A DNA stretch of 32,000 nt from an uncultured Solirubrobacterales bacterium (GCA_963710725.1 CAVQBJ010000008.1:1-32000), one strand, 5' to 3'; shown: positions 1 through 21,727, counted from the stretch's first letter. Notes: generated by a model from the letters alone, not told the origin. Made by a program: numbers and translations.

Positions 1-172
1 TTCGCCCTAACGCCGCCGCAGCACGCTCGCGGACGAGCTCGGCGCGGATAACGTGCCTGTCGCCAACGAGAAGCAGGACTGCCGCGGCTCGTTGCCGGGC
101 GCAGGCTGCGGCCTTCTCGAGGTAGACCCTCTGCGATGCGAGTGTCTGAGAGGGTGGCGACGAGAGCCTCAT
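1..172 (-). CDS. hypothetical protein, first 57 codons only (runs off left edge)
   Basis: ATG at 172-170 on the minus strand; the frame stays open to base 1. The translation MRLSSPPSQTLASQRVYLEKAAACARQRAAAVLLLVGDRHVIRAELV... looks protein-like, unlike the Arg/Ala-rich alternative frames. No family recognised and the SD is weak. Confidence 0.25.
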   Translation of the reverse strand, partial: MRLSSPPSQTLASQRVYLEKAAACARQRAAAVLLLVGDRHVIRAELVRERAAAALGR

Positions 173-209
173 GGCCCCGCACCACGGCTCGGGATCGCCG
201 CGTGCTTGT

Positions 210-1031
210 CTAGTTCAGTTCGCCGGCGGGGCCGGGCGCCGCGCTCTCACGCATCAGCAAGATGACGCTGCTCACCAGAACAAAGACCAGGAGGAGCAAG
301 AACCCGATGAGGTCGAGCACCAGCCCGAACGAGGCGATGACGCCGCCGAGGCCGAAGCCCTGCAGGAAGAGCATGCTTCCGGCGAGGATCGACACCCAGC
401 CGAGCCATCGCGGCAAGACCCCGCTCCTCAGCACAAGCGCGCCGGTTGCGAAAGCAAACAGACTGCCGAAGACATCGCCAACGCTCTCCAGCGCGAACGT
501 CGTCAGATACAGCGTGTAAGACACGCCCGGGTCGTGATGAGCACCGTATGAGGCGAGCTTTGCTCCAACCAATCCAGTGATACCGATGTCGCTGACGGCG
601 TGCAAGGTAACGAAGAGCACCCCGCCAACCAGCACCAACGAACCAAGGGCCCGCGTGCGATCGCTGTCCCCGCGCAGCAGGTCGTGCAGCGTGCTCAGGT
701 AGATCACGAACATGACCGCATAAACGATGGACAGGCATGCGATCACGATCAGCCGGGTTTCGTGGGCGCGAAGACCGTTCGCGATCTTTGCCGCCGAGTC
801 GTTCTGGCTCAGTTCGACCCCAACGGCGACGACGATCTCGGCCACCAGCGCAACTACGAAAAGGATCCCGGCGACCCAGGCGTACCGCTCCCATGCCGTC
901 CTCCCACCCGCGCCATCTCCCACGCTGGTGAGGCTACAGGCGATGTCCCCGTACCTCACACTGCCCGAACCACTAGGCGCGGGATCCTCTTCGCCTCCGT
1001 CGCGTCGACTCCTAGCCTGCGTCGAGCTCAA
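210..1031 (-). CDS. multi-pass integral membrane protein, DUF4386-like
   Basis: 273-aa ORF with about 6 hydrophobic segments (AGILFVVALVAEIVVAVGV, LIVIACLSIVYAVMFVIYL, LVLVGGVLFVTLHAV, ...). This layout recalls DUF4386 proteins. The track start at 1031 is a TTG; in-frame GTGs downstream are alternative starts, so the 5' end is uncertain. T/A-ending codons are visibly more frequent than in the core genes. Confidence 0.6.
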   Translation of the reverse strand: MSSTQARSRRDGGEEDPAPSGSGSVRYGDIACSLTSVGDGAGGRTAWERYAWVAGILFVVALVAEIVVAVGVELSQNDSAAKIANGLRAHETRLIVIACLSIVYAVMFVIYLSTLHDLLRGDSDRTRALGSLVLVGGVLFVTLHAVSDIGITGLVGAKLASYGAHHDPGVSYTLYLTTFALESVGDVFGSLFAFATGALVLRSGVLPRWLGWVSILAGSMLFLQGFGLGGVIASFGLVLDLIGFLLLLVFVLVSSVILLMRESAAPGPAGELN

Positions 1032-1190
1032 GACCGAGAGCGATGGCCGTACTCAAGGGGTTGGACGCTCCGCCGCCCACCTCGGCGCATTGCTCCATCC
1101 GCGACGGCGCAGTCATGCTTTCTTCGGTCGCCGGGCGACGCTTTCTTCGCGGCAACCGAGCGACGGCCCTCGTGCAGCTGCGCAGAAACC

Positions 1191-1340
1191 CCATGGGCCG
1201 GGCAGGACTCGAACCTGCGCGCGACGGATTATGAGTTGCCCACATACAGGGCCTAATGGCTCTAACGAGCCGTTCTAGGTGCGCTGAACTGTCCTTGGAT
1301 CACGTCAGAATTGCGGAGGTTGGGACAAAGTTCGGGATAA
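1191..1340 (-). repeat. tRNA-Met 3'-end copy A (att-like core 1194-1236) plus about 100-nt conserved arm
   Basis: 1194-1236 matches the 3'-terminal 43 nt of the tRNA-Met gene (9403-9445) at all but one base. 1237-1340 is similar to 3212-3318, including the exact 27-mer TCAGAATTGCGGAGGTTGGGACAAAGT at 1305-1331. Confidence 0.85.
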
Positions 1341-1455
1341 GGTTCGAGTCACGGGTCCCGTCACGGACCGGACGCGAGGCCCGCGCTCGCGACCACAATC
1401 TCGATTTCGCCGGCGCGGTTCTCATCGGTCCGAGGACGGCCGTACTGTCGATGGT

Positions 1456-1806
1456 GTGACCGACGCGCCCCGCCTGCCGCGGGCTGACCTGGCGGCGATA
1501 CCGACCGAGAAACTCGTGGGCTATGCGCTTGACCCCAGCCACCCGCGAGGTCGTCACAAGGCGCGAGTGTTCTCGGCGGCACTGGCGATCCATCGGGCCG
1601 ACTGGCGCTACCTGCACGAACAGCTGACGAGAGGCGTGGTCGATGCACCCGTGCGAGGAACGCGCATCACGTCGTTCGGCGTGCTTTACGACGTCGTCGT
1701 GCTCGTTGACGGGCTCAACGGCGCCACGGCGCCGGTCGCGACCATATGGCTCGTCGAGGCTGAGCATCCGCCGCGACTCGTCTCGCTTTGGGTGGATATC
1801 CCCTGA
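1456..1806 (+). CDS. DUF6883 domain protein
   Basis: 116 aa with a GTG start. The N-terminal signature KLVGYALDPSHPRGRHKARVFSAALAI matches my recollection of the DUF6883 consensus (KL..YLL...H..G..KA..F). The stop lies 4 nt before the next ORF. Confidence 0.65.
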   Translation: MTDAPRLPRADLAAIPTEKLVGYALDPSHPRGRHKARVFSAALAIHRADWRYLHEQLTRGVVDAPVRGTRITSFGVLYDVVVLVDGLNGATAPVATIWLVEAEHPPRLVSLWVDIP

Positions 1807-1810
1807 ACGA

Positions 1811-2047
1811 ATGGCAGAATGCACCGTGATGCCGACCGATGACACGCATCCCATTCTGGACGTTGTCGAGCTCCTGACTGCGTCGGGCCGCTGGCCTGCT
1901 GGAACGGTCGGAACGGTCGTCGAGGCTGACGGCGAACGCGTCCTGGTCGAAATCGCCGACGATCGCGGTCACGGCCTCGACTTCATCAGCCTGCCGCGTG
2001 ACGCCGTCGCCGCGCAGCAGTCCGGCGAATCGCGCGCGGCCTCGTAG
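1811..2047 (+). CDS. DUF4926 domain protein
   Basis: 78 aa from ATG 1811 (alternative ATG 1829). A small beta-rich protein, ILDVVELLTASGRWPAGTVGTVVEADGERVLVEIADDRGHGLDFISLPRDAV, typical of DUF4926. It is tightly coupled to the DUF6883 gene. Confidence 0.6.
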   Translation: MAECTVMPTDDTHPILDVVELLTASGRWPAGTVGTVVEADGERVLVEIADDRGHGLDFISLPRDAVAAQQSGESRAAS

Positions 2048-2188
2048 AAGAGAAGCGCCTCGCCGCCCCCGCCCCAGGGCGGAATACGAACGGGCAGTGG
2101 CGATGAGCGAGAGCGTGGCAGCCTCCGGGAGGAGACCTCCTGTGCTGTCGACTGCCGAATTCTCGATCCATCGCAAAGCCGAGGAGGA

Positions 2189-3133
2189 GTGTTCACATCT
2201 TCCGGCGGCCGGGGCGCCCACGATCCGTCAATGCCAGACGCGAAGCACCGCGGTCTCTCAGAGCTGGCGACGCGTATCCACGAGATCACCGCGCCTATCG
2301 TGGAGCAGGATGGCGAGTGCCCCGCGATGCTCTTCCTTCGACAGCCGGACGGCGAGGTCCAACTGCACGAATTCGAGGCGACTCGCGATCCACCCAGCGA
2401 AGCGCGTGAGCGCGAGATAGCCGACGCGGTCAGCGCCTCGGCGGCCGACGCCGTCGTCCTCGTTTCGGAGGCTTGGGCGGCGCGGCCCGACAGGGTGCCC
2501 GAAGGCGGCCGGGCACGTGACGCGCATGATGCCGAGGACGTCCTGCTTGTTGCAGCGCTCGATCGCTGGGGAAATCAGGTCGTGCTCGAGAGCCTGGTGG
2601 CCAAAACAGCTGACGGCGCGGTCCGGGTCGTCCCCCGCGTGGCATTCGGCGAGGAGTACGTCGTCCACACGTTCTATGCCGTCCGCTCCGCGTGGGGCTT
2701 GCCGACGAGGATCATGCTTCGGGGCGTCCTCTCCGTGGAAATCCCCGCCGACTGGACGACGATCGACGAGCCGCAAGCCGTGGGTGTCGAGCCGCCCAGC
2801 CGGGTGGGCGCCGCGCAGTTCTCGGTCTACCGACGTGACGCACACGCGGCACGCCCGGGGAAGGCGTCAGATCACGTGCGCCAGCTCGCCGCAGCCCACG
2901 GTCTGACGCCTCAGGAGTTGATCGAGCATCCGACCGAGGATGGATATGTGTCGACCGCTCAGTTCGCCGACGGCGTCCGCGGCTTGCCGGCCCTAACGAT
3001 CGCCGGTGTCCGACTCTCCCCGACTCATCTCATCCTGTTCACGTACACCGAGGCTGAGGTAGACGGAGACTGCCGGTCTCAGGCACGGCGCATCTTTGAC
3101 AGCGTCGCGGTTGTCGACGCGGGACGGGGCTGA
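2189..3133 (+). CDS. hypothetical protein (orphan, apparently two domains)
   Basis: 314-aa ORF with coding-like composition. GTG 2189 sits directly behind GAGGAGGA, which is probably too close a spacing; the alternative start is ATG 2231. No family recognised. Confidence 0.55.
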   Translation: MFTSSGGRGAHDPSMPDAKHRGLSELATRIHEITAPIVEQDGECPAMLFLRQPDGEVQLHEFEATRDPPSEAREREIADAVSASAADAVVLVSEAWAARPDRVPEGGRARDAHDAEDVLLVAALDRWGNQVVLESLVAKTADGAVRVVPRVAFGEEYVVHTFYAVRSAWGLPTRIMLRGVLSVEIPADWTTIDEPQAVGVEPPSRVGAAQFSVYRRDAHAARPGKASDHVRQLAAAHGLTPQELIEHPTEDGYVSTAQFADGVRGLPALTIAGVRLSPTHLILFTYTEAEVDGDCRSQARRIFDSVAVVDAGRG

Positions 3134-3165
3134 AACGCTTCGGCCCTGCAGCCGCAGCTCCTGCG

Positions 3166-3318
3166 CCATGGGCCGGGCAGGACTCGAACCTGCGCGCGAC
3201 GGATTATGAGTTGCCCAAATGCAGGGCCTTTCGGCTCTACCAAGCCATCTTACACGCGCCCAACTGCGCTCAACTGACCTCAGAATTGCGGAGGTTGGGA
3301 CAAAGTCTGGGACAAAAC
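3166..3318 (-). repeat. tRNA-Met 3'-end copy B (att-like core 3169-3211) plus about 100-nt conserved arm
   Basis: 3169-3211 is identical to copy A and differs from the tRNA gene at one base. The arm 3212-3318 is similar to 1237-1340, with the exact 27-mer at 3280-3306. Confidence 0.85.
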
Positions 3319-3474
3319 TGATCTGAGACGGCTCGACGCCGGCGGGGTCCGCTCTTCGCACTCGCCACGTTCGCCGACCCACTCGCGCGCCCCACGCCGA
3401 GCTGGAGGATGCAAGGGATCGTTCCCTCCGGTCCGCGCGGCGGTCTACCGGATGCGCGCTACTGAGGGGCGATT

Positions 3475-3495
3475 GCGTAGTCGGCTACGCAGGAC
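3475..3495 (+). promoter_or_regulatory. candidate operator box 1: GCGTAG-TCGG-CTACGC followed by AGGAC
   Basis: Inverted repeat with 6-bp arms and a 4-nt spacer, 67 nt upstream of ATG 3563. 17 of 20 positions are identical to the box at 8015-8034. An extra CTACG half-site lies at 3518-3522. Confidence 0.4.
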
Positions 3496-3562
3496 GAGGA
3501 GGCGGCCGGGCGCGAGGCTACGGCGTGTCGATCAGACGCACGTCAACCGGAAGGAGACCCTC

Positions 3563-4171
3563 ATGTCATCTAACCAGAGTAAGAATGCCGAGTCGAGCAC
3601 GGGTGGTAAGGGCATCTTCATCGCGCTGATCCCGTGGATCGCCTTCACGGTGCTCGTTTCGCATTCGACGCTGAAGCTCGGTTCGCTGGCTGCGCTTGCA
3701 GTCGCGATCGTGATCGCGGTGCCGGGGATTCGCTCCGGGCGTCCGAAGCTGCTGGAGCTCGGTGCGGTCGTGACGTTCATCGGGTTCGTCGCAGTGGCGT
3801 TCCTCGCGGACGCTTCGACGGCCAGTTGGGTCGCTCGGTACGCGCGCGGGATCGCGGCGCTGATCCTGTCGGCGATCTCGTTCGCGTCGTTGCTCTTCAC
3901 GCCGTTTACCGAGCAGTACGCGCGCGAGCACGTCCCCGAGCGGTATTGGGGATCGCCGACCTTCAAGGCGGTCAACCGCAAGCTGACCACGATGTGGGCG
4001 TGCATTTTCGCCGCGATGGTGCCGTTCCACGTGATCGCGGGCACGCTCGACACCAGGCTCGGAAACCTGATCTTCAACTGGGCAATCCCGCTCGGGCTGG
4101 TGTTCTGGGGCATCAAGCGGTCCTCCGCCCCCAGCGAGAGCGACACGGCCACGGTCCAGCCGGTGGCGTAG
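3563..4171 (+). CDS. integral membrane protein (about 5-6 TM), unknown function
   Basis: ATG 3563 is preceded by the strong SD GGAAGGAG. The 202-aa product is hydrophobic (IFIALIPWIAFTVLVS, LAALAVAIVIAV, VVTFIGFVAVAFLA, IAALILSAISFASLLF, MWACIFAAMVPFHVIAG, FNWAIPLGLVFWGI). The upstream part of the track ORF (3452-3562) is Arg-rich leader, not coding. Confidence 0.75.
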   Translation: MSSNQSKNAESSTGGKGIFIALIPWIAFTVLVSHSTLKLGSLAALAVAIVIAVPGIRSGRPKLLELGAVVTFIGFVAVAFLADASTASWVARYARGIAALILSAISFASLLFTPFTEQYAREHVPERYWGSPTFKAVNRKLTTMWACIFAAMVPFHVIAGTLDTRLGNLIFNWAIPLGLVFWGIKRSSAPSESDTATVQPVA

Positions 4172-4197
4172 TGGACGACGTGGCTGTCCGATCGGTT

Positions 4198-5307
4198 ATG
4201 GATTCGGCGAGCGGCCGGTGCGAGCACGAGTTGCGAGCACTGGTCGCCGCCGCGCGTTGGGGGGCCGCTGACCCCGAAGTCATGAATACGATCGCCGCTC
4301 GCCTGGTGGGCGGCGATGGCGGCGCGTGGGTGCAGGAGTGGACGGCGGGAGGCGGCGCAGCCTGGTCGGCGGCCAACCGCGAGGGGAGCCCATGGCTCTA
4401 TCTGCATGCCGCCTCGTACTACGCGGCCGCGCTCGCTGTGATCGACCAGAGCGACGGACTGGTCCAGGAGGAACGGCTGTGGGGGCGACAGCGCGAGTGT
4501 TGGGACCGCGCCGTCGGACTGGTCGGCGGCGAGCCGCTCGTGATCCCGTACGGGCAGACGTCGCTGCCGGGGTATTTCTTCTCCGCGGGCTCGGGCGTGA
4601 GGCCGTTGGTGGTCATCGATCACGGGGGCCGCGCGGCCACGTCTTCGGCCTGGGCGGCCGGCGGCGCCGCGGCTCATGCGCGCGGCTATCACTGGATGAC
4701 GTTCGACGGGCCGGGCCGACAGGCAGCACTGCGCCGCCAGGGACTGGTCCTGCGACCCGATTGGGAAGCGGTGCTCGCTCCGGTCGTCGATGCGATGATC
4801 GCCCGGGCGGATGTCGACGCCTCGCGACTCGCGGTCATCGGGATCGACCATGCCGGATACGGCGTCGCGCGGGCGCTGACGTTCGAGCCGCGCTTCGCCG
4901 CGGCCGTGCTGGCGCCGGGAATCATCGATGCGTCCCGTCCGTGGCTGGCCGCGCTTCCAGCGCCGGCCCGTGCGGCACTGCTGGACGAGGACCGCGACCG
5001 GTTTGATCGCGAGGTCCATCTGGCGACGCTGTTCGCGCCGGAGATCCCTGACCGCCTGCGATTCCTGGGGCGCGGGTACGACTTGTCGGGGCTTCCGCTG
5101 TACGACCTCGCGCGGCGGATCGGCGAGTTCCGGCTCGGCGAGGAGCTCTGGCGGATCGCTGCGCCGGTGCTGGTGTGCTCGACGGCGGTCGAGCCGCTTT
5201 GGGCCGTCCAGGCCGCGGAGCTGTGCTCGCGACTGCCGGGCTCCGATCTGGCCTGCGCCGCGCCGGGCGAAGACGCCGTCTCGGACTGGCTCGACCGGCT
5301 GATCTAA
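4198..5307 (+). CDS. alpha/beta-hydrolase-fold paralog lacking the Ser-Asp-His triad (probable pseudoenzyme)
   Basis: Colinear with the 8125-9336 protein (shared blocks RGYHWMTFDGPG.QAAL, DWEAVL.PV.DA, RFAAAV, DRD.FDRE). The nucleophile elbow reads GIDHAG instead of GVSQAG, and the acid and His regions are not conserved. ATG 4198 aligns best with the paralog N-terminus. In-frame GTG 4171 would overlap the upstream stop (TAGTG). Confidence 0.75.
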   Translation: MDSASGRCEHELRALVAAARWGAADPEVMNTIAARLVGGDGGAWVQEWTAGGGAAWSAANREGSPWLYLHAASYYAAALAVIDQSDGLVQEERLWGRQRECWDRAVGLVGGEPLVIPYGQTSLPGYFFSAGSGVRPLVVIDHGGRAATSSAWAAGGAAAHARGYHWMTFDGPGRQAALRRQGLVLRPDWEAVLAPVVDAMIARADVDASRLAVIGIDHAGYGVARALTFEPRFAAAVLAPGIIDASRPWLAALPAPARAALLDEDRDRFDREVHLATLFAPEIPDRLRFLGRGYDLSGLPLYDLARRIGEFRLGEELWRIAAPVLVCSTAVEPLWAVQAAELCSRLPGSDLACAAPGEDAVSDWLDRLI

Positions 5308-5361
5308 TCCCGACTACCTCAGGTTCGTGAGAGCGCTCTTGTCGAGGGCGTAACCTTCGCG

Positions 5362-7974
5362 GTGGCCATGCCTGGGGAGCTGGGGCTCTCGTCCCCTTTA
5401 GAAGGCACGTGGCCCCTCGTGGGCCGCGATCGCGAACTCGAAGCGATCGCGTCGGCGCGCGCCAGCCCGGGGTGCAATGGGGTAGTCCTTGTTGCTGACG
5501 CCGGGGTCGGCAAGTCGCGTCTGGCCAGGGAGGCACAGGACGCGGCGCACCGCGACGGTGCGTTCGTCGATTGGGTGCACGCGACGCGCAGCGCCTCGGC
5601 CGTCCCGCTCGCGGCCGTAGCCGATCTGGTGCCCGAGGAGGTCCGCTCCGACGACATCGTCGCGCTGATGAGACGCTGCGGTGAGCAGCTGCTAGCCCGG
5701 GCCGGGAGCCGTCGGGTGGTCATCGGCGTCGACGATGCGCAGTTGCTTGACCCGGTCTCGGCCGCGCTGGTCCTGCATCTCGCGACCTCGGGAGCGGCGT
5801 TCGTGCTCGCGACCGTGCGCGCCGGGGAGCCGTGCCCCGACGCGATCGTGTCGTTGTGGAAGGAGGACACCGCGCGGCGAATGGAGCTCGCCTACCTCGG
5901 CGACGACGCGGTCCGGTCCCTGGTCGAGGCCGCGCTTGGTGACCCGGTGGAGGAGGCCGCCCTGGACTGGGTGGCCGAGGTCAGCCGGGGAAACGTGCTG
6001 TACGTGCGCGAGCTCGTCCGCGGCGCGGTCGAGGCGGAAGCGCTCGTCCGGTCAGGCGGGTTCTGGCGACTCGAGGGCCGCCCCACCGTCAGTCCATCGC
6101 TGGTCGATCTGGTCGGCCAGCGGATGGACGGTCTCACGGGCGATCAGCGACACGCGGTCGAGCTGCTCGCGCTCGGTGAGCCGCTCGCACTGCAGGAGAT
6201 CGCTGCGTTGACGTCCGAGGACACGCTGCTCGAGGCCGAGTCTCACGGGGTGATTGCCACAGACGGCCAGGAGGTCAGGCTGGCGCACCCGCTGTACGGC
6301 GAGGTGGTGCGCGCGCGGCTGGCGCCACTGCGGGCGCGCAGCCTGTGCATGCGGGTCGTAGAGGTCCTCGAGCGTCGGGATGCATTCGGCGCCGACGACG
6401 CCATGAGGGTGGCTCGGCTTCGTCTGGATGCCGGTGTGGCTCTGTCGGCGGACCTCGCGCTGCAAGGAGCACGAGCGGCAAACCGTGCCGGCGATCCCGA
6501 TCTCGGCGCGGAGCTCGCCACGCTCGCGGGCGCGGACACCGACCTGGTCGCCGCGATGCTCCTGGCCCAGTCGCACGCGATGCGCAGCCGTTACGAGGAG
6601 TCAGAGGCGGCGCTGGCCGCCGTTGAGGCGCTGGCCCCGGGAGATCCAAACGCCCGCGACTATGTCCGCCAGCGGCTGTCGCTGTACCACTGGGGGCTGC
6701 GGCGCGCGCGCGACACCGGCGCGCTGCTCGATCGCGCCGAGAGCTGGTCGCAGGACCGCGGTTGGCAGCGGTTCACCGGCCGGATCCGCGTCACCTACGA
6801 TGCGCTGAGCGACGGGTTCGAGTCACCGCTGGACCCCAGCGACAGCGTCGGCGACCCCGGCGTCACGGATGAAGCGCGCCGCGGGCTGGCGGCGATGCAG
6901 ACGGTGTCGTCGTTCCTGTCCGGGCAGGGCGACGCGGCAGCGGCGATGGCATTCGCGGCGCGGCCATCGGTGCCGCTGCGCGACTTCGCCGACGCCGGAG
7001 CGCTGGCCGCCCTGAGCCTGATCGCACTGGAGACGGGCCAGCGCTGGGATGAGGTCGAGCAGTACATGAGCGCCGTCGTGCACGACGCCGTGCGAGCCCA
7101 CGACCACGCCGCCGGCGGACTGGCGGCCTTTACGCTCGCGCGCCTGCACTTCCTCCGGGCGCGGTACCGCGACGCGTCCCGTTGGCTTGCCGAAGCCGAG
7201 ATCCACCTCCAGCAGCAGGATCCCTTCAACGTGATGCTGTCCGTCCGTGCGCTCCACGTGGGGATCGCGTGCTTCACCGGCGAGTTTGACGGCACGATGA
7301 CCGCGGTGGAGCGGCTGCGCGCGTTTTGCCAGAAGCACGAGCCGCTGCCCGTCCAACGCGCACCGCTGCGCCGGGCAGAAGGCTGGGCATCACGGGTACG
7401 CGACGCCGTCAGCGCGGGTGATCAACTGCTCGTCGACGCGGCGTCGATGGAGGATGACATGGTGGGTTTGGCGGCCCAGCTGGCGTACGACGCGCTGCGA
7501 GTCGGAGCGCCGGCGGCGCCGCAGCTTGAGCGGATGGCCGCCCGCTGCCGGTCCCGCCTCGTGACGGCGTATGCGCAGCACGGCACTGCGAAGGCAGCGC
7601 GTGACGGCGCTGCGCTGATGCAGGCCGCAGAGGAGATGGCGGCGATCGGCGCGCTCCGCTACGCCGTCGAGGCCGCGGGCGACGCCGCCGCGGCGTTGCT
7701 CTCGCAGGGACGCCAGGACTCGGCCCGCCGCGCCGCCGCTCGTGCCCGTCAGCTCCACGTTCCCGACCAGGGCGCGGAGCTGCCGCCGATCGACGGTCTC
7801 GACGCCGCCGCGGTCGACCTCACGCGGCGCGAGGCGCAGCTCGTTGACCTCGCGCGCGAGGGGTTGAGCAACGCCGAGATCGCGGACCGTCTCGTGCTCT
7901 CGGTGCGGACCGTCGAGACGCACCTGTACCGCGGCATGCAGAAGCTCGGCATCAACGATCGTCGGGACCTCTGA
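5362..7974 (+). CDS. LAL-type transcriptional regulator (N-terminal AAA+/STAND ATPase, helical repeat middle, C-terminal LuxR HTH)
   Basis: 870 aa. Walker A is VADAGVGKSRLA and Walker B is VVIGVDDAQLLD. The C-terminus LTRREAQLVDLAREGLSNAEIADRLVLSVRTVETHLYRGMQKLGI is a classic LuxR/GerE HTH. The start is GTG 5362 or ATG 5368. Confidence 0.9.
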   Translation: MAMPGELGLSSPLEGTWPLVGRDRELEAIASARASPGCNGVVLVADAGVGKSRLAREAQDAAHRDGAFVDWVHATRSASAVPLAAVADLVPEEVRSDDIVALMRRCGEQLLARAGSRRVVIGVDDAQLLDPVSAALVLHLATSGAAFVLATVRAGEPCPDAIVSLWKEDTARRMELAYLGDDAVRSLVEAALGDPVEEAALDWVAEVSRGNVLYVRELVRGAVEAEALVRSGGFWRLEGRPTVSPSLVDLVGQRMDGLTGDQRHAVELLALGEPLALQEIAALTSEDTLLEAESHGVIATDGQEVRLAHPLYGEVVRARLAPLRARSLCMRVVEVLERRDAFGADDAMRVARLRLDAGVALSADLALQGARAANRAGDPDLGAELATLAGADTDLVAAMLLAQSHAMRSRYEESEAALAAVEALAPGDPNARDYVRQRLSLYHWGLRRARDTGALLDRAESWSQDRGWQRFTGRIRVTYDALSDGFESPLDPSDSVGDPGVTDEARRGLAAMQTVSSFLSGQGDAAAAMAFAARPSVPLRDFADAGALAALSLIALETGQRWDEVEQYMSAVVHDAVRAHDHAAGGLAAFTLARLHFLRARYRDASRWLAEAEIHLQQQDPFNVMLSVRALHVGIACFTGEFDGTMTAVERLRAFCQKHEPLPVQRAPLRRAEGWASRVRDAVSAGDQLLVDAASMEDDMVGLAAQLAYDALRVGAPAAPQLERMAARCRSRLVTAYAQHGTAKAARDGAALMQAAEEMAAIGALRYAVEAAGDAAAALLSQGRQDSARRAAARARQLHVPDQGAELPPIDGLDAAAVDLTRREAQLVDLAREGLSNAEIADRLVLSVRTVETHLYRGMQKLGINDRRDL

Positions 7975-8013
7975 GCCGGAGCTCGTCTCACGGCGCGAAA
8001 ACCACCCTCGAAT

Positions 8014-8034
8014 ACGTAGCGCGCTACGCAGGAC
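8014..8034 (+). promoter_or_regulatory. candidate operator box 2: CGTAGCG/CGCTACG palindrome followed by CAGGAC
   Basis: Perfect 14-bp palindrome at 8015-8028, then CAGGAC, ending 90 nt upstream of ATG 8125. It matches box 1 at 17 of 20 positions. A further GTAGCG half-site lies at 8077-8082. Confidence 0.4.
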
Positions 8035-8124
8035 AGGCGATCTCTGCGCCGACACGCTTTCGTCAGACAGCGAGTTGTAGCGCCGCCGCAAAGAGTGAGC
8101 GCGACCTGAGACGAAGGGGACAAC

Positions 8125-9336
8125 ATGAACGAGCAGTTTGCGGACGCCGAATTTCAATTCGGCCTCGAGATCACATTGGGCGCCGCCTACCGTCAGGCGT
8201 CCGACGTAGGCGAGGCGCTCGCCACCGCCAGCCGGATCACCGACGGCGACGCCGATTCGTGGCTCAACGAGTGGACCGCCACGGCCGAGCTGTGCCAGGC
8301 CGCCGGCGCCGAAGCGCAGTCAGCTGATCGGCGCGTCAGCGCCCTGTCCTACTATCGACGCGCCGCAACCTACTACGCGACCGCGCTCTACCGCTTCTCC
8401 GGCGCCACCGACCACTCGCCCGAGCGCGAGCACGAGCTGTGGCGCCGCCAGCGGGCCTGCTGGGAGCGAGTCGTCGACTTGCAGGCGGTGCCCGGCCAGC
8501 GCATCTCGATCCCCTACGAGGACACGACTCTGGCGGGTTTCTTCTTCCGCGCCCCGGACGCCACGCCGGGCGAGCGCCGCCCGCTCGTCGTCATGAACAA
8601 CGGCAGCGACGGCGCCACCTCGGCGATGTGGTTGGAGGGCGGTGCGGCCGCGGCCGAACGCGGCTATCACTGGATGACGTTCGACGGTCCCGGGCAGCAG
8701 GCGGCGCTCTATGAGCAGAATATCCCCTTCCGCCACGACTGGGAAGCCGTCCTCACTCCCGTCCTCGATGCGATCCTCCCGCGCCCCGACGTCGACGAGC
8801 ACCACGTCGCGCTGATCGGCGTCAGCCAAGCCGGCTACTGGGTGCCACGGGCGATCGCGTTCGAGCATCGCTTCGCCGCCGCCGTGGCCGACGGGGGCGT
8901 CGTCGACGTCTCGGCCGGATGGCTGAACCATCTGCCGGACACCATGCGCAAGCAGCTCGGCGACGGCGATCGCGACGCGTTCGATCGCGAGATGCAAGTC
9001 GCGGAAAGCAGATCGCCGGCGGCCAAGGCGACGCTCGACTTCCGTGGCAAGCCCTATGGGTTCAACGGTGGCTCCCGCTTCGATCTCTACCAGGAGATCT
9101 CGTCCTATCGACTCGGCGACGAGGTGAGCGACATCACCACCCCGCTGCTCATCACAGACCCCGACGACGAGCAGTTCTTCCCCGGACAGCCCCAACAGCT
9201 CTACGACCTCCTGTCCGGCACCAAGAAGCTCATCCGGTTCACCGCGCACGAAGGGGCCAACGGCCACTGCGAACCGATGGCCCGGTCACTGCGAGACACC
9301 CGCATCTTCGACTGGCTCGAGGGCTACCTACAGTGA
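8125..9336 (+). CDS. alpha/beta hydrolase family protein (serine hydrolase with N-terminal helical domain)
   Basis: 403 aa with the SD GAAGGGGA before ATG 8125. It has the nucleophile elbow GVSQAG, an acid region LLITDPDDEQF and a C-terminal His region HEGANGHCE. It is a paralog of 4198-5307. Confidence 0.85.
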   Translation: MNEQFADAEFQFGLEITLGAAYRQASDVGEALATASRITDGDADSWLNEWTATAELCQAAGAEAQSADRRVSALSYYRRAATYYATALYRFSGATDHSPEREHELWRRQRACWERVVDLQAVPGQRISIPYEDTTLAGFFFRAPDATPGERRPLVVMNNGSDGATSAMWLEGGAAAAERGYHWMTFDGPGQQAALYEQNIPFRHDWEAVLTPVLDAILPRPDVDEHHVALIGVSQAGYWVPRAIAFEHRFAAAVADGGVVDVSAGWLNHLPDTMRKQLGDGDRDAFDREMQVAESRSPAAKATLDFRGKPYGFNGGSRFDLYQEISSYRLGDEVSDITTPLLITDPDDEQFFPGQPQQLYDLLSGTKKLIRFTAHEGANGHCEPMARSLRDTRIFDWLEGYLQ

Positions 9337-9377
9337 CCACGCGTACACCCAACCTGCACGTGCGCGCGTCGCAGGAG

Positions 9378-9399
9378 AGGCCCATTTTGCAGGCCTTTT
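9378..9399 (+). terminator. weak hairpin plus T-run downstream of the hydrolase gene
   Basis: AGGCC (9378-9382) pairs with GGCCT (9392-9396) across a 9-nt loop, followed by TTT. It lies 42 nt after the stop and directly abuts the tRNA 3' end. Confidence 0.3.
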
Positions 9400-9402
9400 C
9401 GA

Positions 9403-9475
9403 TGGGCCGGGCAGGACTCGAACCTGCGCACGACGGATTATGAGTCCGCTGCTCTAACCACTGAGCTACCGGCCC
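9403..9475 (-). tRNA. tRNA-Met (anticodon CAT); elongator-type, tRNA-Ile2 (lysidine) not excluded
   Basis: The reverse complement folds as a 73-nt cloverleaf: GGGCCGG TA GCTC AGTGGTTA GAGC A GCGGA CTCATAA TCCGT CGTGC GCAGG TTCGAGT CCTGC CCGGCCC A. G1-C72 is paired, so it is not an initiator. No CCA is encoded. Confidence 0.9.
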
Positions 9476-9555
9476 TTGCAAGCGCGGAGCTTATTCGGCC
9501 CGGCGGCTCACGCCGCGCGACGCGGCGGACGTCCCCACGTCGCGTGCGGCGGGGC

Positions 9556-9651
9556 TCACAGCACGGCAAACGCCGCGACGATGACGGCGCCCACCACGAC
9601 CAGGGCGCTGACCAGCAGCGATGCGAAGGTGACGGTGACGATCGTCTTCAC
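9556..9651 (-). CDS. candidate 31-aa single-TM hydrophobic micropeptide
   Basis: GTG 9651-9649 to TGA 9558-9556 translates to (M)KTIVTVTFASLLVSALVVVGAVIVAAFAVL. 29 of 31 codons end in G/C, matching host coding bias. An in-frame stop lies 15 nt upstream. It is below the track's size cutoff and has no clear SD. Confidence 0.3.
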   Translation of the reverse strand: MKTIVTVTFASLLVSALVVVGAVIVAAFAVL

Positions 9652-9778
9652 GCCAGCAACACGCTAGGAGCCGCTCCGAAGCAATTCATAAAGGCGGGCC
9701 CCGCGCGCCCCGCCGGCCGACGCTCGCCGTCGCGGTGGTTTGATACCGCGGCACCGTATCCCCGAACGGAGGAGCACC

Positions 9779-10522
9779 ATGGCTGAGCGCGCGGCGATCG
9801 TGACCGGAGCATCGAGTGGCATCGGCCTCGCGATCGCTCGAATGCTGGGCGAGGAGGGCTACGCGGTGACGATGGCGGCTCGCCAGCCCGAGAAGCTGGA
9901 GGCCGCACGGGCCGAGCTCGCCGATGCGGGCCTGGAGGTCCAGGCCGTCGCCGGCAACGTGAGCCACGAGGACACGGCGAGCCGCGTGATCACCGCCCAC
10001 CGCGAGGCCTACGGTCGCCTCGATGTCCTCGTCAATAATGCCGGCCTCGGCATCGGCTCGCTCGTCGGCGAGATCCAGACGAAGCACCTGGACCTGCAGC
10101 TCGCGGTGAACCTGCGCCAGGTGATCCTCTTCTACCGCGAGGCCTTGGATCTGCTCAAGGCAGCGGGGGCCGAGCATCGAAACGCGCTCGTCGTGAACAC
10201 GTCGTCGATCTCGGGCAAGCGCGGCGAGCCGTGGCTGTCGGTGTACTCGGCGGCCAAGCACGGCGTCGTGGGCTGGACCCAGGCGATGAACAAGGAGCTG
10301 TCCTCCCTCGGCATCAAGTCGACGGCGCTCTGTCCCGCCTTCGTCGACACGCCGATGACCGAGTGGGTCAAGGGCCACGTCAACGCCCAGGACATGATCC
10401 GCTCGCAGGACATCGCCGAATCCGTGCGCTTCCTGCTGCGCACCTCACCCGGGTGCGTCGTGCCCGAGGTCATGTTCGAGATGCCCGGCGGTGAGCTCGA
10501 CTTCAGCGCCGCGGCGACGTGA
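9779..10522 (+). CDS. SDR family oxidoreductase
   Basis: ATG 9779 follows GGAGGAG. TGASSGIG Rossmann motif, NNAG, and the catalytic YSAAK. 247 aa. Confidence 0.9.
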   Translation: MAERAAIVTGASSGIGLAIARMLGEEGYAVTMAARQPEKLEAARAELADAGLEVQAVAGNVSHEDTASRVITAHREAYGRLDVLVNNAGLGIGSLVGEIQTKHLDLQLAVNLRQVILFYREALDLLKAAGAEHRNALVVNTSSISGKRGEPWLSVYSAAKHGVVGWTQAMNKELSSLGIKSTALCPAFVDTPMTEWVKGHVNAQDMIRSQDIAESVRFLLRTSPGCVVPEVMFEMPGGELDFSAAAT

Positions 10523-11707: not shown

Positions 11708-12997
11708 ATGCCGGGCAGCGTTCACGTGGCCGACCGGCGGCTGCGTCTGGTCCTCGGCGCCTTCGGGGACGCGGGACACGCATTCCCGATCATTGCCCTC
11801 GGCCGAGGGCTCGCGGCGCGTGGGCACGACGTGACCGTGCAGACCTGGAAGCGCTGGCGCGAGGCGATCGAGCGGGAGGGGCTCGGGTTCGCGCCGGCGC
11901 CCGAGTACCAGGTCTTTCCGACCGAGAATCGACCGCTGAAACCCTACGAGGCGGTCGTCCGGGCGGCCCGCGCGGCCGTGCCGGTGCTCGAGCAGCTGCG
12001 GCCCGACGTGGTCGTCTCCGACATCCTCACGCTCGCGCCGGCACTGGCCGCCGAGATGGCCGGCATCCCGGTGGCCACGCTCGTCCCGCACGTCTACCCG
12101 GTCGGGGAGGCCGGCCTGCCGACGTACTCGATCGGCGCCCGAATGCCGCGCACACCGCTCGGGCGGGCGTTCTGGCGACGACTGGAGTTCATCACCGATC
12201 ACGGCCTCCAGCAGGGTCGCGCCGAGCTGAACGGCACGCGCGAGCGCCTCGGCCTGCCGACGCTGCCCTACGTCCATGGCGGCATGAGCCGCGAGCTGAC
12301 GCTCGTGGCCACCTTCCCGCAGCTCGAATACCCGCGCCGATGGCCGGCGCACGTGTCGGTCGTCGGCCCGCTGATGTGGGAGCCGCCGAGCGAGGACGTC
12401 GAGCTGCCGCCCGGCGACGCGCCACTCGTGCTCATCGCGCCCTCGACCGCCCAGGACCCCGACCACCGCATGCTCGCCGCGGCGTTGCGCGGCCTCGCCG
12501 ACCTGCCCGTGCGGGTCCTCGCCACGTGGAACCGCCGACCGCCCCCGCGCCCGCTGCCGGTGCCCGACAACGCGCGGCTCGTGGAGTGGGTCTCCTACTC
12601 GCGCACGATGCCGCGCTGCGACGTCGTCGTCTGCCACGCCGGGCACGGCACGCTCGTGCGCGCGCTCAGCAGCGGCTGCGTCGTCGTCGCCTGCCCGGCC
12701 GTCGGGGACATGAACGAGAACGCGGCGCGCCTGGACTGGGCCGGCCTGGGCGTGCGCGTCCCCCGGCGGTTCGTCGGCGCACGCCCGTTGCGACTCGCCG
12801 TCGAGCGTGCGCTCGCCGACGAACAGATGCGCCAGCGGGTACGAGAGCTGGCGGCATGGAGCGCCACGCACGACGCCGCCGAGCGCGCCGCGCGACTCAT
12901 CGAGCGGCTTGCCGGTCGCGGCGAGGCCGCGCGAGCCGAGACCGCGGCGGAGGGAGAGCTCCGGGGGTGGGACTCGAACCCACAACATCGCGGTTAA
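11708..12997 (+). CDS. GT1-family (MGT/UDP-glycosyltransferase-like) glycosyltransferase
   Basis: ATG 11708 lies 15 nt after the LLM stop. The N-terminus is LVLGAFGDAGHAFPIIALGRGLAARGHDV and the C-terminal donor-binding region is VVVCHAGHGTLVRALSSGCVVVACPAVGDMNENAARL. The first 355 codons of the track ORF (10643-) are a shadow frame over the LLM gene. The 3' tail overlaps tRNA-Asn. Confidence 0.8.
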   Translation: MPGSVHVADRRLRLVLGAFGDAGHAFPIIALGRGLAARGHDVTVQTWKRWREAIEREGLGFAPAPEYQVFPTENRPLKPYEAVVRAARAAVPVLEQLRPDVVVSDILTLAPALAAEMAGIPVATLVPHVYPVGEAGLPTYSIGARMPRTPLGRAFWRRLEFITDHGLQQGRAELNGTRERLGLPTLPYVHGGMSRELTLVATFPQLEYPRRWPAHVSVVGPLMWEPPSEDVELPPGDAPLVLIAPSTAQDPDHRMLAAALRGLADLPVRVLATWNRRPPPRPLPVPDNARLVEWVSYSRTMPRCDVVVCHAGHGTLVRALSSGCVVVACPAVGDMNENAARLDWAGLGVRVPRRFVGARPLRLAVERALADEQMRQRVRELAAWSATHDAAERAARLIERLAGRGEAARAETAAEGELRGWDSNPQHRG

Positions 12998-13706: not shown

Positions 13707-15435
13707 CGCGACCGTCCGTCCGCGCGACCTGGATCTGGCGATCGATGCGCGCGAGCTCGAGCTGGAGCTCCTCGACCTCGAGCGTGGCCGGGTCGGCCGC
13801 CTCGCTCCCCGCCCGCACGGCGAGATCGGCGATCAGCGCCGCGAACTGCGGGTCGTCCTCGGGCAGCTCGGCCCCCGGCGAGCGCAGGTGCTCGCGCAGG
13901 TGCTGCGCCGCACGGCGCAGGAGCTCGGTCGAGAAGTGCTCCGCGGGATCCACGCGCGCGAGCGCGGCCTCTCCCTCGTCGGGCATCGCCACGCACAGCG
14001 CCAGGAAGGTCCGCTCGGTCTCCTCGCGGCGGTCGAGCGCCACGATCCGCCGCCCCGTCTCCCCCGCCCGCGCCGTCGGTTCGCCCACCGGACCGCTCCG
14101 CGCCGCGCGCGGCGCGGCGCCGCGGCCGCCGCCCGCCGGCGCGGCGAGCAGCGTCTCGGTCACCCCCTCGCGCAGCCCCATCCGCCCGGAGACGATCCGC
14201 AGCAGCTCCTCGCGCATCGCGCCCGGCCCAATCGTCGCGAACACCGGGCGCAGCTGCTCGAGCGTGTGGTCGCGCCCCTCCGGCGAGGAGTCATCGCCGG
14301 CGGCGAGCACCCGCTCGACGCGAAACCGCACAAAGGGCACCGAGGCGCCCACCGCGGCGCCGAGCGCCTCCGACCCGTCGCGCTGCACGAGCTCGGCCGG
14401 GTCGGCGCCGGCCGGCAGCGGCACGACGCGCAGCTCGAGTCGCTGGCGGGCGGCGAGCGTGGCCGCCCGCAGCATCGCCTCCTGCCCGGCGCTGTCGGCA
14501 TCAAGGGCGAGCAGCACCGTCGAGGCAAGGCGGGCGAGCTCGCTCACCTGCTCGGCGGTGAGCGCGGTGCCCATCAACCCGACGGTCTCGCGCAGCCCCG
14601 CCTGGTGCAGCGCGATGACATCGGTGTAGCCCTCGCACAGGATCACCCGCCCGGCGCGCGTGGCGTGCGCGCGCGCGACGTCGGCGCCATAGAGGTGCTG
14701 ACCCTTGTGGTAGATGTCGTTGTCGGAGGTGTTGAGGTACTTCGGCTGCTGGTTGTCGCGCATCGCACGCGCGCCGAAGCCGAGCACGCGGCCGCGGACG
14801 TCGCAGAGCGGGAACATGATCCGCTCGCGGAAGCGGTCGTAGGCCTGGCCGTTCTGGCGCGAGCGCTGCGCGAGCCCGGTCGCGTACAGCTCGGCCTCGC
14901 TGTAACCGGCCCGCCGCGAGGCGAGCAGCACGCGGTCCCACGGGCTCGGCGCGTAGCCGACGCGAAAGGCGCGCAGCATCTCCTCGCCGAGCCCGCGTCC
15001 GGCCAGGTAGTCACGCGCGCGCGCCGCCTCGGGCGAGTCCCACAGCACGCGCTGGTAGTAGTCGCTCGTGCGGGCCAGCAGCTCGAGCAGGCGTTCGCGA
15101 GCGCGGCGACGCTCGGCCTCGCGGGGATCCTCGGCCTCGCGCTCGAGCTGCACGTTGTAGCGATCGGCGAGCAGCTCCAGGGCGCCCTTGAAGTCGACCC
15201 CCTCGGTCTCCTGCACGAATCGGAACACGTCGCCGGAGGCCTGGCAGCCGAAGCAGTGGTAGAGCTTCTCGCTCGGGTTGATCCCGAACGACGGCGTGCG
15301 CTCGTCGTGGAACGGGCACAGCCCCTCGTAGCGGTTCGGGCCGGCGCGACGCAGGTCGGTGCGGGCGCCGACCAGCGCCACGAAGTCGACGGCATCGCGC
15401 ACCCGCTCGCGCGACTCGGTTGTGTAAAGGGCCAT
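13621..15435 (-). CDS. dnaG: DNA primase
   Basis: 604 aa. Zinc-finger region GLCPFHDERTPSFGINPSEKLYHCFGCQASGD, a TOPRIM region (ILCEGYTDVIALHQAG ... LALDADSAG) and a C-terminal helical domain. Confidence 0.95.
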   Translation of the reverse strand: MALYTTESRERVRDAVDFVALVGARTDLRRAGPNRYEGLCPFHDERTPSFGINPSEKLYHCFGCQASGDVFRFVQETEGVDFKGALELLADRYNVQLEREAEDPREAERRRARERLLELLARTSDYYQRVLWDSPEAARARDYLAGRGLGEEMLRAFRVGYAPSPWDRVLLASRRAGYSEAELYATGLAQRSRQNGQAYDRFRERIMFPLCDVRGRVLGFGARAMRDNQQPKYLNTSDNDIYHKGQHLYGADVARAHATRAGRVILCEGYTDVIALHQAGLRETVGLMGTALTAEQVSELARLASTVLLALDADSAGQEAMLRAATLAARQRLELRVVPLPAGADPAELVQRDGSEALGAAVGASVPFVRFRVERVLAAGDDSSPEGRDHTLEQLRPVFATIGPGAMREELLRIVSGRMGLREGVTETLLAAPAGGGRGAAPRAARSGPVGEPTARAGETGRRIVALDRREETERTFLALCVAMPDEGEAALARVDPAEHFSTELLRRAAQHLREHLRSPGAELPEDDPQFAALIADLAVRAGSEAADPATLEVEELQLELARIDRQIQVARTDGRGDVSDLAVRRGEIKAAVDRAYDRVLEQA

Positions 15436-16996: not shown

Positions 16997-19669
<2,673 letters not shown>

Positions 19670-19701
19670 CCGGAGGTGAGCAGACTACCGCGACGGCAGG
19701 G

Positions 19702-20442
19702 TCAGACCGTCTGCGCCACCGCGCTCGACCGCCCACGCGCCGCTGCGGGCATCAGGCGCAGGTGGGCGTGGTGCTCGAGCGTCTCGGCGACCGCGCGCTC
19801 GACCTGGCCGAGGACGACGTCCTCGGCCACCGGGGCCTCGGCGAGCGAGCGGCCGAGCGCGTCGACCATGAAGGCGTGCGCCGGCTCGCCGAGGCGGAAC
19901 GATCCCGCCTCGCACGCCGCACACACGACGCCCCCGGCGGCGCCCGAGAAGCCGACGAGATGCTCGCGCTCGCCGCAGGTCGCGCAGGCGCCGAGCGCCG
20001 GGGCGAGGCCCGCGGCGAGCAGGAGCTTCAGGCGGAACGCGAGCCCGTTGGCGCGCGTCGCCAGCCCCGGATCGGCGTCGAGCAGGGCGAGCTCGTGACA
20101 GAGCAGGTTGAACACCCCGGGATGCGGCTCGGAGGTCTCGAACAGCCGCCCGACGGCGTCGCAGGCGCGGGCGGCGGCATCGAGCGCTCCCCCATCCTCG
20201 CGCAGGCGGCGGTAGCCGTCGACGGTGTCCGCCGCCGTGACGGTGAACAGCTCGCCGCGACCCTCGTGGAGGATGAGGCGCAGGCGGAAGAACGGCTCCA
20301 GGCGCCCGCCGAAGCGGCTTCGCGCGCGGCGCACACCCTTGGCGATCGCCCCCACGCGCCCGTGCTGCGGGGTGTACAGATGCAGGATGCGATCGGCCTC
20401 GCCGTAGCGCATCGAGCGCAGGACGACCGCTTCGGTGCGCAT
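19702..20442 (-). CDS. recO: DNA repair protein RecO
   Basis: Start at ATG 20442 (MRTEAVVLRSMRYGEADRILHLYTPQHGRVGAIAKGVRR...), with the C-terminal Cys motif CATCG...CAAC. Confidence 0.9.
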   Translation of the reverse strand: MRTEAVVLRSMRYGEADRILHLYTPQHGRVGAIAKGVRRARSRFGGRLEPFFRLRLILHEGRGELFTVTAADTVDGYRRLREDGGALDAAARACDAVGRLFETSEPHPGVFNLLCHELALLDADPGLATRANGLAFRLKLLLAAGLAPALGACATCGEREHLVGFSGAAGGVVCAACEAGSFRLGEPAHAFMVDALGRSLAEAPVAEDVVLGQVERAVAETLEHHAHLRLMPAAARGRSSAVAQTV

Positions 20443-20615
20443 CGGGCCGGGCATGGATGGGAGTCTAGGCCCGGGTCGGGACGACCTCGCCGGGTGCCAG
20501 CCCGACACGACGCGTAATGCTCGGACCTGATCCGAGTCTCTTCCATATGGCCTTCACATCCGAGTCCTCAGATCCTCCGGTTCACCTCCAACCCCTGGCT
20601 ATCCTTTCTGCAGCA

Positions 20616-20870
20616 ATGAAGGAGATCACGGTCTACACGACGGATTTCTGCTCGTACTGCGAGCGCACGAAGGCGCTGCTGCGCAAGCGTGGGCTCAGCT
20701 ACACCGAGGTCAACCTCTCGCGCGACCACGAGACCCGGGCCGAGCTCGCGGCCCGCACCGGGATGATGACCTTCCCGCAGGTGCTCATCGAGGGCGAGTT
20801 GATCGGCGGCTACGCCGAGACGGCCGCGGCCTCCGACAGCGGTCGGCTCGACGAGCTGCTCGCCGCCTGA
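20616..20870 (+). CDS. glutaredoxin (GrxC-like, CSYC active site)
   Basis: 84 aa: MKEITVYTTDFCSYCERTKALLRKRGLSYTEVNL...TFPQVLIEGELIGGY. The upstream part of the track ORF is a low-GC leader. Confidence 0.85.
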   Translation: MKEITVYTTDFCSYCERTKALLRKRGLSYTEVNLSRDHETRAELAARTGMMTFPQVLIEGELIGGYAETAAASDSGRLDELLAA

Positions 20871-21715: not shown

Positions 21716-21727
21716 GCAGGCCCGATG

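Follow-up and report, generated by a model that had tools for sequence, protein, structure and literature searches.

The stretch of DNA analysed here, called the window, is 32,000 nucleotides (nt) long and comes from an uncultured Solirubrobacterales bacterium (GCA_963710725.1, CAVQBJ010000008.1:1-32000). It contains an intact gene for a methionine transfer RNA (tRNA), tRNA-Met(CAT), and downstream of this gene two displaced copies of its 3' part. These copies delimit two islets of DNA. Read on the tRNA-sense strand, the order is: 5' part of the tRNA, core, a short segment called Z, islet 2, arm P2, core, islet 1, arm P1, core, and then the flank. This text describes the array, and asks what put it there. 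Coordinates are given in Table 1, and loci used for comparison carry handles like L009.

The repeated tRNA end and its arms

The repeated unit is the 3'-terminal 43 nt of tRNA-Met, 9403-9445. This is the attachment (att) core, and here it forms the attL/attB side of the array. The 43-mer TGGGCCGGGCAGGACTCGAACCTGCGCGCGACGGATTATGAGT is found exactly in both displaced copies, and with one mismatch (A9430) in the gene itself. The chance expectation for such a recurrence is 0, based on 100 shuffles. Both displaced copies are identical to each other, are orientated like the tRNA gene, and lie downstream of it. An initial annotation, made from the sequence alone, had already reported the recurrence as well as the single differing base, and both are confirmed.

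The block of identity runs from tRNA position 31/32, in the anticodon loop, to position 73, the discriminator. The mismatch falls in the variable loop. It was considered as a marker for the crossover and found to be uninformative: this base stays with the downstream flank in any anticodon-loop exchange. Since strain divergence is 0.65%, a point mutation suffices to explain it.

The core 1 junction is also present in L001, L002 and L009, where L009 is a near-identical strain. No further core was found in L009 within 3 kb to the left of the outermost core. L001, L002 and L013 are short-read metagenome contigs of the same or sister strains, and they start or stop exactly at cores (window 1191, 9402). 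Repeats break assemblies, and therefore arrays like this one will be under-represented in short-read metagenome-assembled genomes (MAGs).

Each displaced core has an arm of about 110 nt next to it, with 2-4 TGTCCC repeats at 12-nt spacing and a GCAATTCTGA box. The 150-nt units 1191-1340 and 3166-3315 are 83% identical, the arms alone 72%. A 27-mer is exact in both arms (1305-1331, 3280-3306). It ends in GGGACAAAG, and GGGAYAA follows 12 nt on. The initial annotation had noticed the 27-mer and some 100 nt of mutual similarity beside the copies, and was right about both. In arm 2, GGGACAAAG-TCT-GGGACAAAA turns into TGTCCC repeats when read on the tRNA-sense strand. In that direction the window arms read …AACCTTATCCCGAACTTTGTCCCAACCTCCGCAATTCTGA…, then about 60 nt, then the core. 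An nhmmer profile of the arms recovers arm 2 with E=7.6e-34.

Table 1 Features of the window, with the array first and its contents and surroundings after it.
Feature	Position	Strand	Evidence and remarks
tRNA-Met(CAT) gene, intact	9403..9475	-	ARAGORN; Rfam tRNA 75.8 bits
Core 1, displaced tRNA-Met 3' part	1194..1236	-	Exact 43-mer; outermost attR seen in the window
Core 2, displaced tRNA-Met 3' part	3169..3211	-	Exact 43-mer; junction of islet 2 and islet 1
P arm 1	1237..1349	-	27-mer (1305-1331) and 12-nt periodic repeats GGGACAAAGTTC / GGGATAAGGTTC (1322-1345)
P arm 2, attR-side arm of islet 2	3212..3321	-	GGGACAAAG-TCT-GGGACAAAA (3297-3315), GCAATTCTGA box, 27-mer (3280-3306)
Segment Z, short, hairpin-like, directly downstream of the tRNA	9380..9402	-	Sense strand TCGAAAAGGCCTGCAAAATGGGCC
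Islet 1, 1.9 kb	1237..3168	+	DUF6883, DUF4926, 314-aa open reading frame without known family; Pfam
DUF6883 gene	1456-1806		Islet 1; Pfam
DUF4926 gene	1811-2047		Islet 1; Pfam
Open reading frame of 314 aa, unknown	2189-3133		Islet 1
Islet 2, 6.2 kb	3212..9402	+	Four genes; Pfam, composition
Membrane-protein gene	3563-4171		Islet 2
hydE, hydrolase-like	4198-5307		Islet 2
AAA_16/LuxR regulator gene	5362-7974		Islet 2
hydG, S9/FrsA-like hydrolase	8125-9336		Islet 2
DUF4386 membrane-protein gene	210..1031	-	Flank beyond the outermost core; Pfam
Tyrosine recombinase XerD	22996-24135	-	NCBIfam XerD equivalog, 335 bits vs cut-off 329.6

Occupancy of the tRNA-Met locus

Three orthologous loci (L014, L015, L016) were fetched via their DnaG orthologues, which are 93%, 88% and 84% identical. 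All three retain the order xerD…dnaG, tRNA-Asn, glycosyltransferase, luciferase-like monooxygenase (LLM), short-chain dehydrogenase/reductase (SDR), tRNA-Met. Pairwise alignments between these loci and the window all end exactly at the 3' end of tRNA-Met. The DNA beyond that point is different in each genome.

The near-identical strain L009 matches window positions 1-9445 at 99.35% identity, and diverges exactly at 9445. At this point an arm, 97% identical to arm 2, replaces the 5' half of the tRNA. After that arm come a Xre/RES toxin-antitoxin pair, an arm motif that has no core, a TIG-domain gene, and a unit with a variant core and an arm of the arm 1 type. Because L009 and the window part at 9445, the array varies at its tRNA-proximal end, the very end at which a new integration would be expected. 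Between the two, the Z-adjacent core differs at one base.

In L015, hairpin Z and an abhydrolase/TetR pair come after tRNA-Met, and this is the empty form. In L006 the order is arm, core, Z, abhydrolase/TetR pair, 94% identical to L015 over 1.9 kb, and this is the occupied form. L006 and L014 share one contig of 350,374 nt, and in L014 other genes follow tRNA-Met. L015 versus L014 plus L006 is a classic empty/occupied pair, between two other species. By the same comparisons, the tRNA-Met gene presents itself as an integration hot spot. The initial annotation had proposed to check for occupancy polymorphism, and the outcome is positive on two counts: the divergence of L009 at 9445 and the L015/L006 pair.

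The core-less arm motif of L009 (GCAATTGCGACGTTGGGACGAAGTCTGGGACAAG, 12745-12790) stands between the RES toxin gene and the TIG-domain gene. It is probably a unit that lost its core.

The cognate integrase

In L016, a tyrosine integrase of 407 amino acids (Phage_int_SAM_3 and Phage_integrase domains) begins some 120 nt past the orthologous tRNA-Met, with a spacer of the form tRNA–TCGGAAAGGCCTGCAAATCGGGCA…–GAACTTTGTCCCAACTTTGTCCCAG–int, and the integrase is preceded by AACTTTGTCCCAACTTTGTCCC, a repeat as in the window arms. In addition, the 14-mer AACTTTGTCCCAAC is identical in the window arms and in the integrase-side arm of L016/L023.

A scan of metagenome contigs delivered 35 loci with relatives of the L016 integrase. 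A tRNA-Met(CAT) lies directly upstream of the integrase in 12 of the 35. The integrase is found behind tRNA-Met in L016, L017, L018, L019, L020, L023, L026, L027 and L038, and in L028, L044 and L045 the integrase match comes within about 35 nt of the tRNA, with no TGTCCC repeat there. L017 and L023 are at the same chromosomal site, given that the tRNA-Asn neighbour is also present. Other clades of the integrase have a different tRNA upstream, namely tRNA-Gly(CCC) in L029 and L032, and tRNA-SeC in L036 and L041.

Where the spacer between tRNA and integrase is readable, it holds a hairpin and then two TGTCCC repeats 11 nt apart, just ahead of the integrase gene. Such two-repeat spacers were read in L016-L020, L023, L026, L027, L029, L032, L036, L038 and L041. 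The repeat has a flavour per clade: CTTTGTCCC in L016/L023, ATCTGTCCC in L017-L020, and RYGTGTCCC elsewhere. The fetched DNA adds up to 416,684 nt, and nowhere in it is tandem TGTCCC seen except ahead of these integrase genes, in about 20 fetched loci, and in all arms that lack an integrase.

Lambda-type tyrosine integrases have an attP that consists of a core plus arm-type sites. The present case is similar in several ways. The identity block from the anticodon loop to the 3' end regenerates the tRNA, the integrase gene abuts attL, and short direct repeats flank the core on either side at a distance of 60-110 nt. It differs in that the role of arm site is predicted from sequence here, and the repeats by the integrase gene could equally be its operator. 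We infer with moderate confidence that the TGTCCC repeats are putative arm-type sites, bound by the integrase. Alternatively, they may be an operator for the integrase gene that the P arm carries as well. The target is a familiar one: integration by tyrosine integrases into the anticodon-loop sublocation of tRNA genes is reportedly part of the Williams classification of 2002.

It is very probable that the repeats are the footprints of serial site-specific integration by this integrase family at the anticodon-loop sublocation of tRNA-Met, and that the arms are its P arms. Read on the tRNA-sense strand, each arm occupies the place of the tRNA 5' half. It is therefore the inner, distal end of an element, a P arm joined to a displaced core, and the two make up an attR. 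The double tandem integration at a tRNA 3' end that had been proposed from the sequence is supported by the hot spot, the occupancy polymorphism and the cognate integrase. The arms had also been proposed to be recombinase arm sites of related elements. This stands insofar as the repeat matches the integrase-side arms, with the refinement that they are integrase-distal P arms, on the attR side. The search for integrase-bearing relatives that share the arm motif also had a positive outcome: a AACTTTGTCCCAACTTTGTCCC-type repeat precedes the integrase in L016, and likewise in L017 and L023, but no complete element with exactly this P arm turned up.

L047, a metagenome contig, has two arm-plus-core units, with the repeat flavour of another integrase clade. 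At 1400-1870 in this locus, the P arm and the first of the two cores are fused directly to integrase codons 292-384, the last 93 codons, which are 77% identical to the L016 integrase. L047 is a decay intermediate, from which the P' arm and about 290 integrase codons have been deleted. A second copy of the tRNA 3' part was looked for downstream of each integrase, and only the distant tRNA-Gly element L029 has one: it is 20 nt long, lies at a distance of 3.7 kb and has no arm that can be recognised.

The 21 core-adjacent nt of the P arm (3212-3232 / 1237-1257; sense GAAAGGCCCTGCATTTGGGCA) are close to the integrase-side hairpin GAAAGGCCTGCAAATCGGGCA (L016 15539-15565). The core of attP thus appears to be flanked by two direct copies of one short element. 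This element could be a core-type site, a host-factor site or a terminator.

The L016 island at tRNA-Met (17362-21839) has Multi_ubiq, a ThiF/E1-like protein with DUF6791, and BubE. It also has an HTH/ImmA-like (Peptidase_M78) pair and a DUF4365 protein. This cargo looks like ubiquitin-like anti-phage defence. Some 5.4 kb into the island, at 20935-20975, there is a fragment GGTCGCAGGTTCAAGTCCTGTCTCCCCGA that resembles the T-arm and acceptor end of another tRNA. It may be an att remnant of another element.

Absence of the integrase from the window

In 1-10500, Pfam detects no gene for an integrase, a transposase, replication or transfer, and neither Pfam nor NCBIfam detects a recombinase. A tblastn search of the window with the relative's cognate integrase yields no pseudogene remnant either. 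The initial annotation's statement that 1194-9403 lacks such genes is thereby borne out. Because relatives do have an integrase at the same tRNA-Met, the window islets are derivatives and not complete members.

The sole recombinase of the 32-kb window is XerD, 13.5 kb from the array, in a recN-steA-pyrG-NUDIX-xerD core cluster. This cluster is syntenic in L014, L015 and L016. The recombinase passes the XerD equivalog cut-off and is syntenic in three other genomes, and is therefore a housekeeping one. It falls far below the cut-offs of integron-integrase models. As the integrase of the array it is ruled out.

Segment Z is homologous to the first ~25 nt behind the tRNA in integrase-bearing elements. 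Sequence like it is found behind tRNA-Met in L015, L016, L018, L020 and L023, and behind a core in L006 and L009. Z has the look of a P'-arm stump, and the TGTCCC repeats and integrase expected to follow it are missing in the window. The integrase-proximal ends of the islets are degraded: islet 2 retains Z only, and islet 1 nothing recognisable. In terms of attachment sites, the attL side has its core, plus a ~23-nt stump of the P' arm in islet 2 and no P' arm in islet 1. The attR side, P arm and core, is intact in both islets.

The outer flanks of the cores, 1150-1193 and 3125-3168, are weakly alike (CGGCCCT..GCAGC.GC.GC). Each has a GGCCCT(GCA) that is inverted with respect to the (TGC)AGGGCC of the adjacent arm, and the pair brackets the core. 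This may be chance, or a remnant of the P' hairpin.

Units of arm and core in other genomes

The segment with core, arm, DUF6883 and DUF4926 (1191-2033) recurs in L004, which is another species, at 93% nucleotide and 97-99% protein identity and with unrelated flanks. A decayed second copy of this module, with arm 1, is present in L009 at 14841-15331. One arm type pairs with two tRNA-Met-type cores (L009, L004). L005 has three tandem integrase-less units with the same arm motif and a 3' fragment like that of tRNA-Leu(TAA) (1995-2125, 4320-4482, 6205-6335). The third of these fragments is truncated, and an AMP-binding enzyme and an AAA_16 protein lie between the units. Since the L005 arms pair with a tRNA-Leu(TAA) fragment, the arm family serves at least two tRNA targets.

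Could the ~150-nt unit be something other than a recombination site? It might be a dispersed repeat, as the initial annotation had allowed, or a tRNA-derived small RNA gene, a portable promoter or a segmental duplication. The units are conserved and non-coding, and part of the arm is weakly like the D-arm region of a tRNA (GGCTCTAAC-GAGCC vs GCTCTAACCACTGAGC). However, every full unit found has beside it a 3' fragment of a tRNA, beginning in the anticodon loop, and this holds for two different tRNAs, which does not fit a dispersed repeat. Nor does a structured RNA fit well: Rfam matches only the two real tRNAs, and RNAalifold gives a covariation term of 0.08, with support only for the inherited T-arm helix. 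There is no promoter-like site in 1000-3700, and the unrelated flanks of the units rule out a segmental duplication. All these options together are very hard to believe.

A different possibility is that the units are autonomous cassettes without an integrase, circular and attP-bearing when excised, and moved in trans by an integrase encoded elsewhere, as in integrons. The units are indeed small (about 1-2.3 kb), with toxin-antitoxin-like or single-operon cargo. They come in arrays of 3-5 in L009, L004 and L005, and all cargo genes that were read beside an arm point away from it. On the other hand, the tRNA-proximal islet ends share no conserved sequence and have no TGTCCC repeats. An excised islet would therefore carry half of the arm set of an integrase-bearing attL. 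There is no integron-type integrase next to the array, and neither attC-like palindromes nor a promoter turned up.

Nor is there a sign of a free or abundant form, as collections of viral sequences and of JGI metagenomes lack the exact arm motif. Among GTDB genomes, an exact 19-mer from the arm is found in three Solirubrobacterales MAGs and, apart from one chance match, nowhere else, and it has no match in IMG/VR. A degenerate arm motif gives two chance matches only in IMG/VR, with a G+C content (GC) of 52-56% and without a tRNA fragment. An exact 22-mer has no match in JGI metagenomes. Autonomous movement in trans is accordingly quite improbable. The initial annotation had left a choice between decayed remnants and cargo mobilised in trans. 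With the P' arm and the integrase lost, decay together with possible movement in cis fits better than free mobilisation in trans.

Proposed mechanism

An intact element would have this order: tRNA, 43-nt core, short hairpin, two TGTCCC repeats 11 nt apart, integrase, cargo, distal P arm, second core. Its attP would carry tRNA positions 31-73. The crossover is placed in the anticodon loop by inference, and strand exchange there would rebuild the whole tRNA and displace the old 3' part outward. Each later integration at the rebuilt tRNA would then shift earlier elements further out.

The window islets would have lost the integrase and the integrase-proximal P' arm, and kept the distal half-site attR, P arm and core. 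In that state they would be incapable of recombining by themselves. If a relative with an integrase inserts at the tRNA, its own attL, which has a P' arm, could be paired with any downstream attR. The islets would then be carried along in cis. This is accretion as known from cis-mobilizable elements (CIMEs). Alternatively, the array could be reshuffled by the loss of units through core-by-core recombination.

Our preferred reading is that the islets are integrase-less leftovers in a tandem stack at a tRNA-Met hot spot of tyrosine-integrase islands, with reshuffling that is CIME-like in cis or that consists of core-by-core loss. We consider this likely. Whether the islets take part in such recombination today is a separate matter. 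By analogy this would most plausibly happen in cis, and it is put forward here as a tentative suggestion.

Several observations weigh against this reading, or parts of it. No complete element was recovered, with the integrase at one end and this exact P arm at the other; what ties the arm to the integrase is the repeat they share, together with L047. The 32-kb window, the 21 kb of L009 and L004-L006, the last three scanned with Pfam, yielded no integrase of the family. A conserved P' arm is also missing from the tRNA-proximal islet ends. Arm-only identity between species is 89%, against 82-85% for third codon positions and 80-88% for intergenic DNA. As this is only slightly higher, selection on the whole arm is not demonstrated. 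The difference between the window and L009 could come from homologous recombination between repeats of 44-150 bp, for which no integrase is needed.

The contents of islet 2 also need to be considered here. Islet 1 has a GC of 0.65-0.69. Over the window, GC is 0.63-0.69 as far as about 4000, and 0.70-0.73 over the remainder of islet 2, which is close to the core chromosome. The islet 2 block 3468-9337 is also present in L010, L012 and L053, without cores and with different neighbours each time. Counting their relatives, four other genomes have the block without att sites. From these copies, the four-gene block of islet 2 reads as a portable or captured operon, and not as the backbone of an element. 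Given its host-like GC and the att-less copies, the block may be captured chromosomal DNA rather than typical cargo.

Much of this would suit inert fossils. These would have the same integrative origin, with the islets now fixed, and with the window/L009 difference due to homologous recombination between the direct repeats of 44-150 bp. No integrase is found in the window besides XerD, nor in L009 or L004-L006, the P' arms are missing, and conservation of the whole arm is near neutral levels. The single-base difference in the Z-adjacent core fits simple drift. Some tandem islands elsewhere may be fixed as well (PMC3146451).

Other data are harder to square with fossils. The motif block is 27/27 identical between the window arms, with 0-1 base difference in each of the six closely related units, while outside the block the arm diverged into two sequence types. 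An invariant block within such an arm would speak for ongoing constraint. The arm-plus-DUF6883/DUF4926 module is found at 93% in the context of another species, with its second copy in L009. Cores and arms are shuffled, with core type B next to arm type 1 in L009 and next to a diverged arm in L004, which points to repeated recombination at cores. That the islets are inert is, on this evidence, somewhat doubtful.

It is also conceivable that the integrase-less units have evolved into hitchhiking cassettes that keep the distal half-site only, gather in arrays at tRNA-Met and tRNA-Leu, and are redistributed in cis. This is unlikely. If true, it would amount to a tRNA-based analogue of the integron cassette pool across Solirubrobacterales.

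Relation to known systems

CIMEs are islands without an integrase in tandem att arrays, and by definition they retain both attL and attR (PMC5704250). Examples of CIMEs and accretion are ICESt1/CIME in Streptococcus thermophilus and the pathogenicity islands of Streptomyces (PMC5704250). The islets resemble CIMEs in the loss of integration and transfer genes, in the att repeats at the 3' end of a target gene, and in stacking by successive integration. Carriage along with a functional relative that integrates alongside would be a further likeness, proposed here by analogy. In contrast to classical CIMEs, which keep attL and attR, only the attR-side arm is conserved here, and the attL-side arm is a hairpin stump of ~23 nt or gone. 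A further difference is the host, an uncultured Solirubrobacterales actinobacterium, and no conjugation or phage module was seen in any member of the family.

The ssrA arrays of Dehalococcoides comprise 15 islands without an integration module, and these were proposed to be cis-mobilizable (PMC3146451). There too, many tandem islands stand behind one small-RNA gene, each bounded by a direct repeat of its 3' end, with extra conserved nucleotides beside the repeat and high variation from strain to strain (PMC3146451). The enzyme of that system is a serine recombinase (DsiB), and its ssrA repeat is 20 bp long and lies at the T-loop (PMC3146451), whereas here we have a tyrosine integrase, tRNA-Met, a 43-nt repeat from the anticodon loop, and an arm of ~110 nt with TGTCCC repeats.

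Integron cassette arrays likewise have ordered small cargo units, mostly promoter-less and including toxin-antitoxin pairs, and grow at one anchored end. The resemblance is in layout only. No IntI-type integrase or attI is adjacent here, there are no attC hairpins and no common promoter, and the sites are tRNA fragments with arm sites. An integron reading of the array was therefore rejected.

tRNA hot spots, tandem accretion and CIME-like integrase-less islets are well-known phenomena, and no new mechanism is involved. The novelty lies in the lineage, in the integrase family and in its TGTCCC arm motif. An integration hot spot at tRNA-Met and tRNA-Leu is now documented in Solirubrobacterales, a poorly studied, uncultured order of actinobacteria. 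The cognate integrase family and the candidate arm-site motif together give a practical rule to delimit islands and integrase-less islets in MAGs of this order. The array also adds one more lineage for tandem accretion and integrase loss as a general route by which island cargo is fixed or reshuffled. Such cargo includes toxin-antitoxin pairs, defence genes and metabolic operons.

Islet cargo and surroundings

To the right of tRNA-Met lies conserved core chromosome: SDR, luciferase-like monooxygenase, tRNA-Asn, dnaG, dgt, ppdK, recO, fpg, and xerD-NUDIX-pyrG-steA-recN. In islet 1, DUF6883 and DUF4926 look like a toxin-antitoxin pair.

The hydE and hydG genes of islet 2 are paralogues, with about 67% nucleotide identity over ~450 nt (repeat families D3, D4). 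The pair is kept in every copy of the four-gene block. A palindromic box is found upstream of the membrane-protein gene (GCGATTGCGTAGTCGGCTACGCAGGAC, 3468-3495) and upstream of hydG (CGAATACGTAGCGCGCTACGCAGGAC, 8009-8034). L010, L012 and L053 have conserved the first of these, at the left end of the block. The box is probably an operator for the block's own AAA_16/LuxR regulator.

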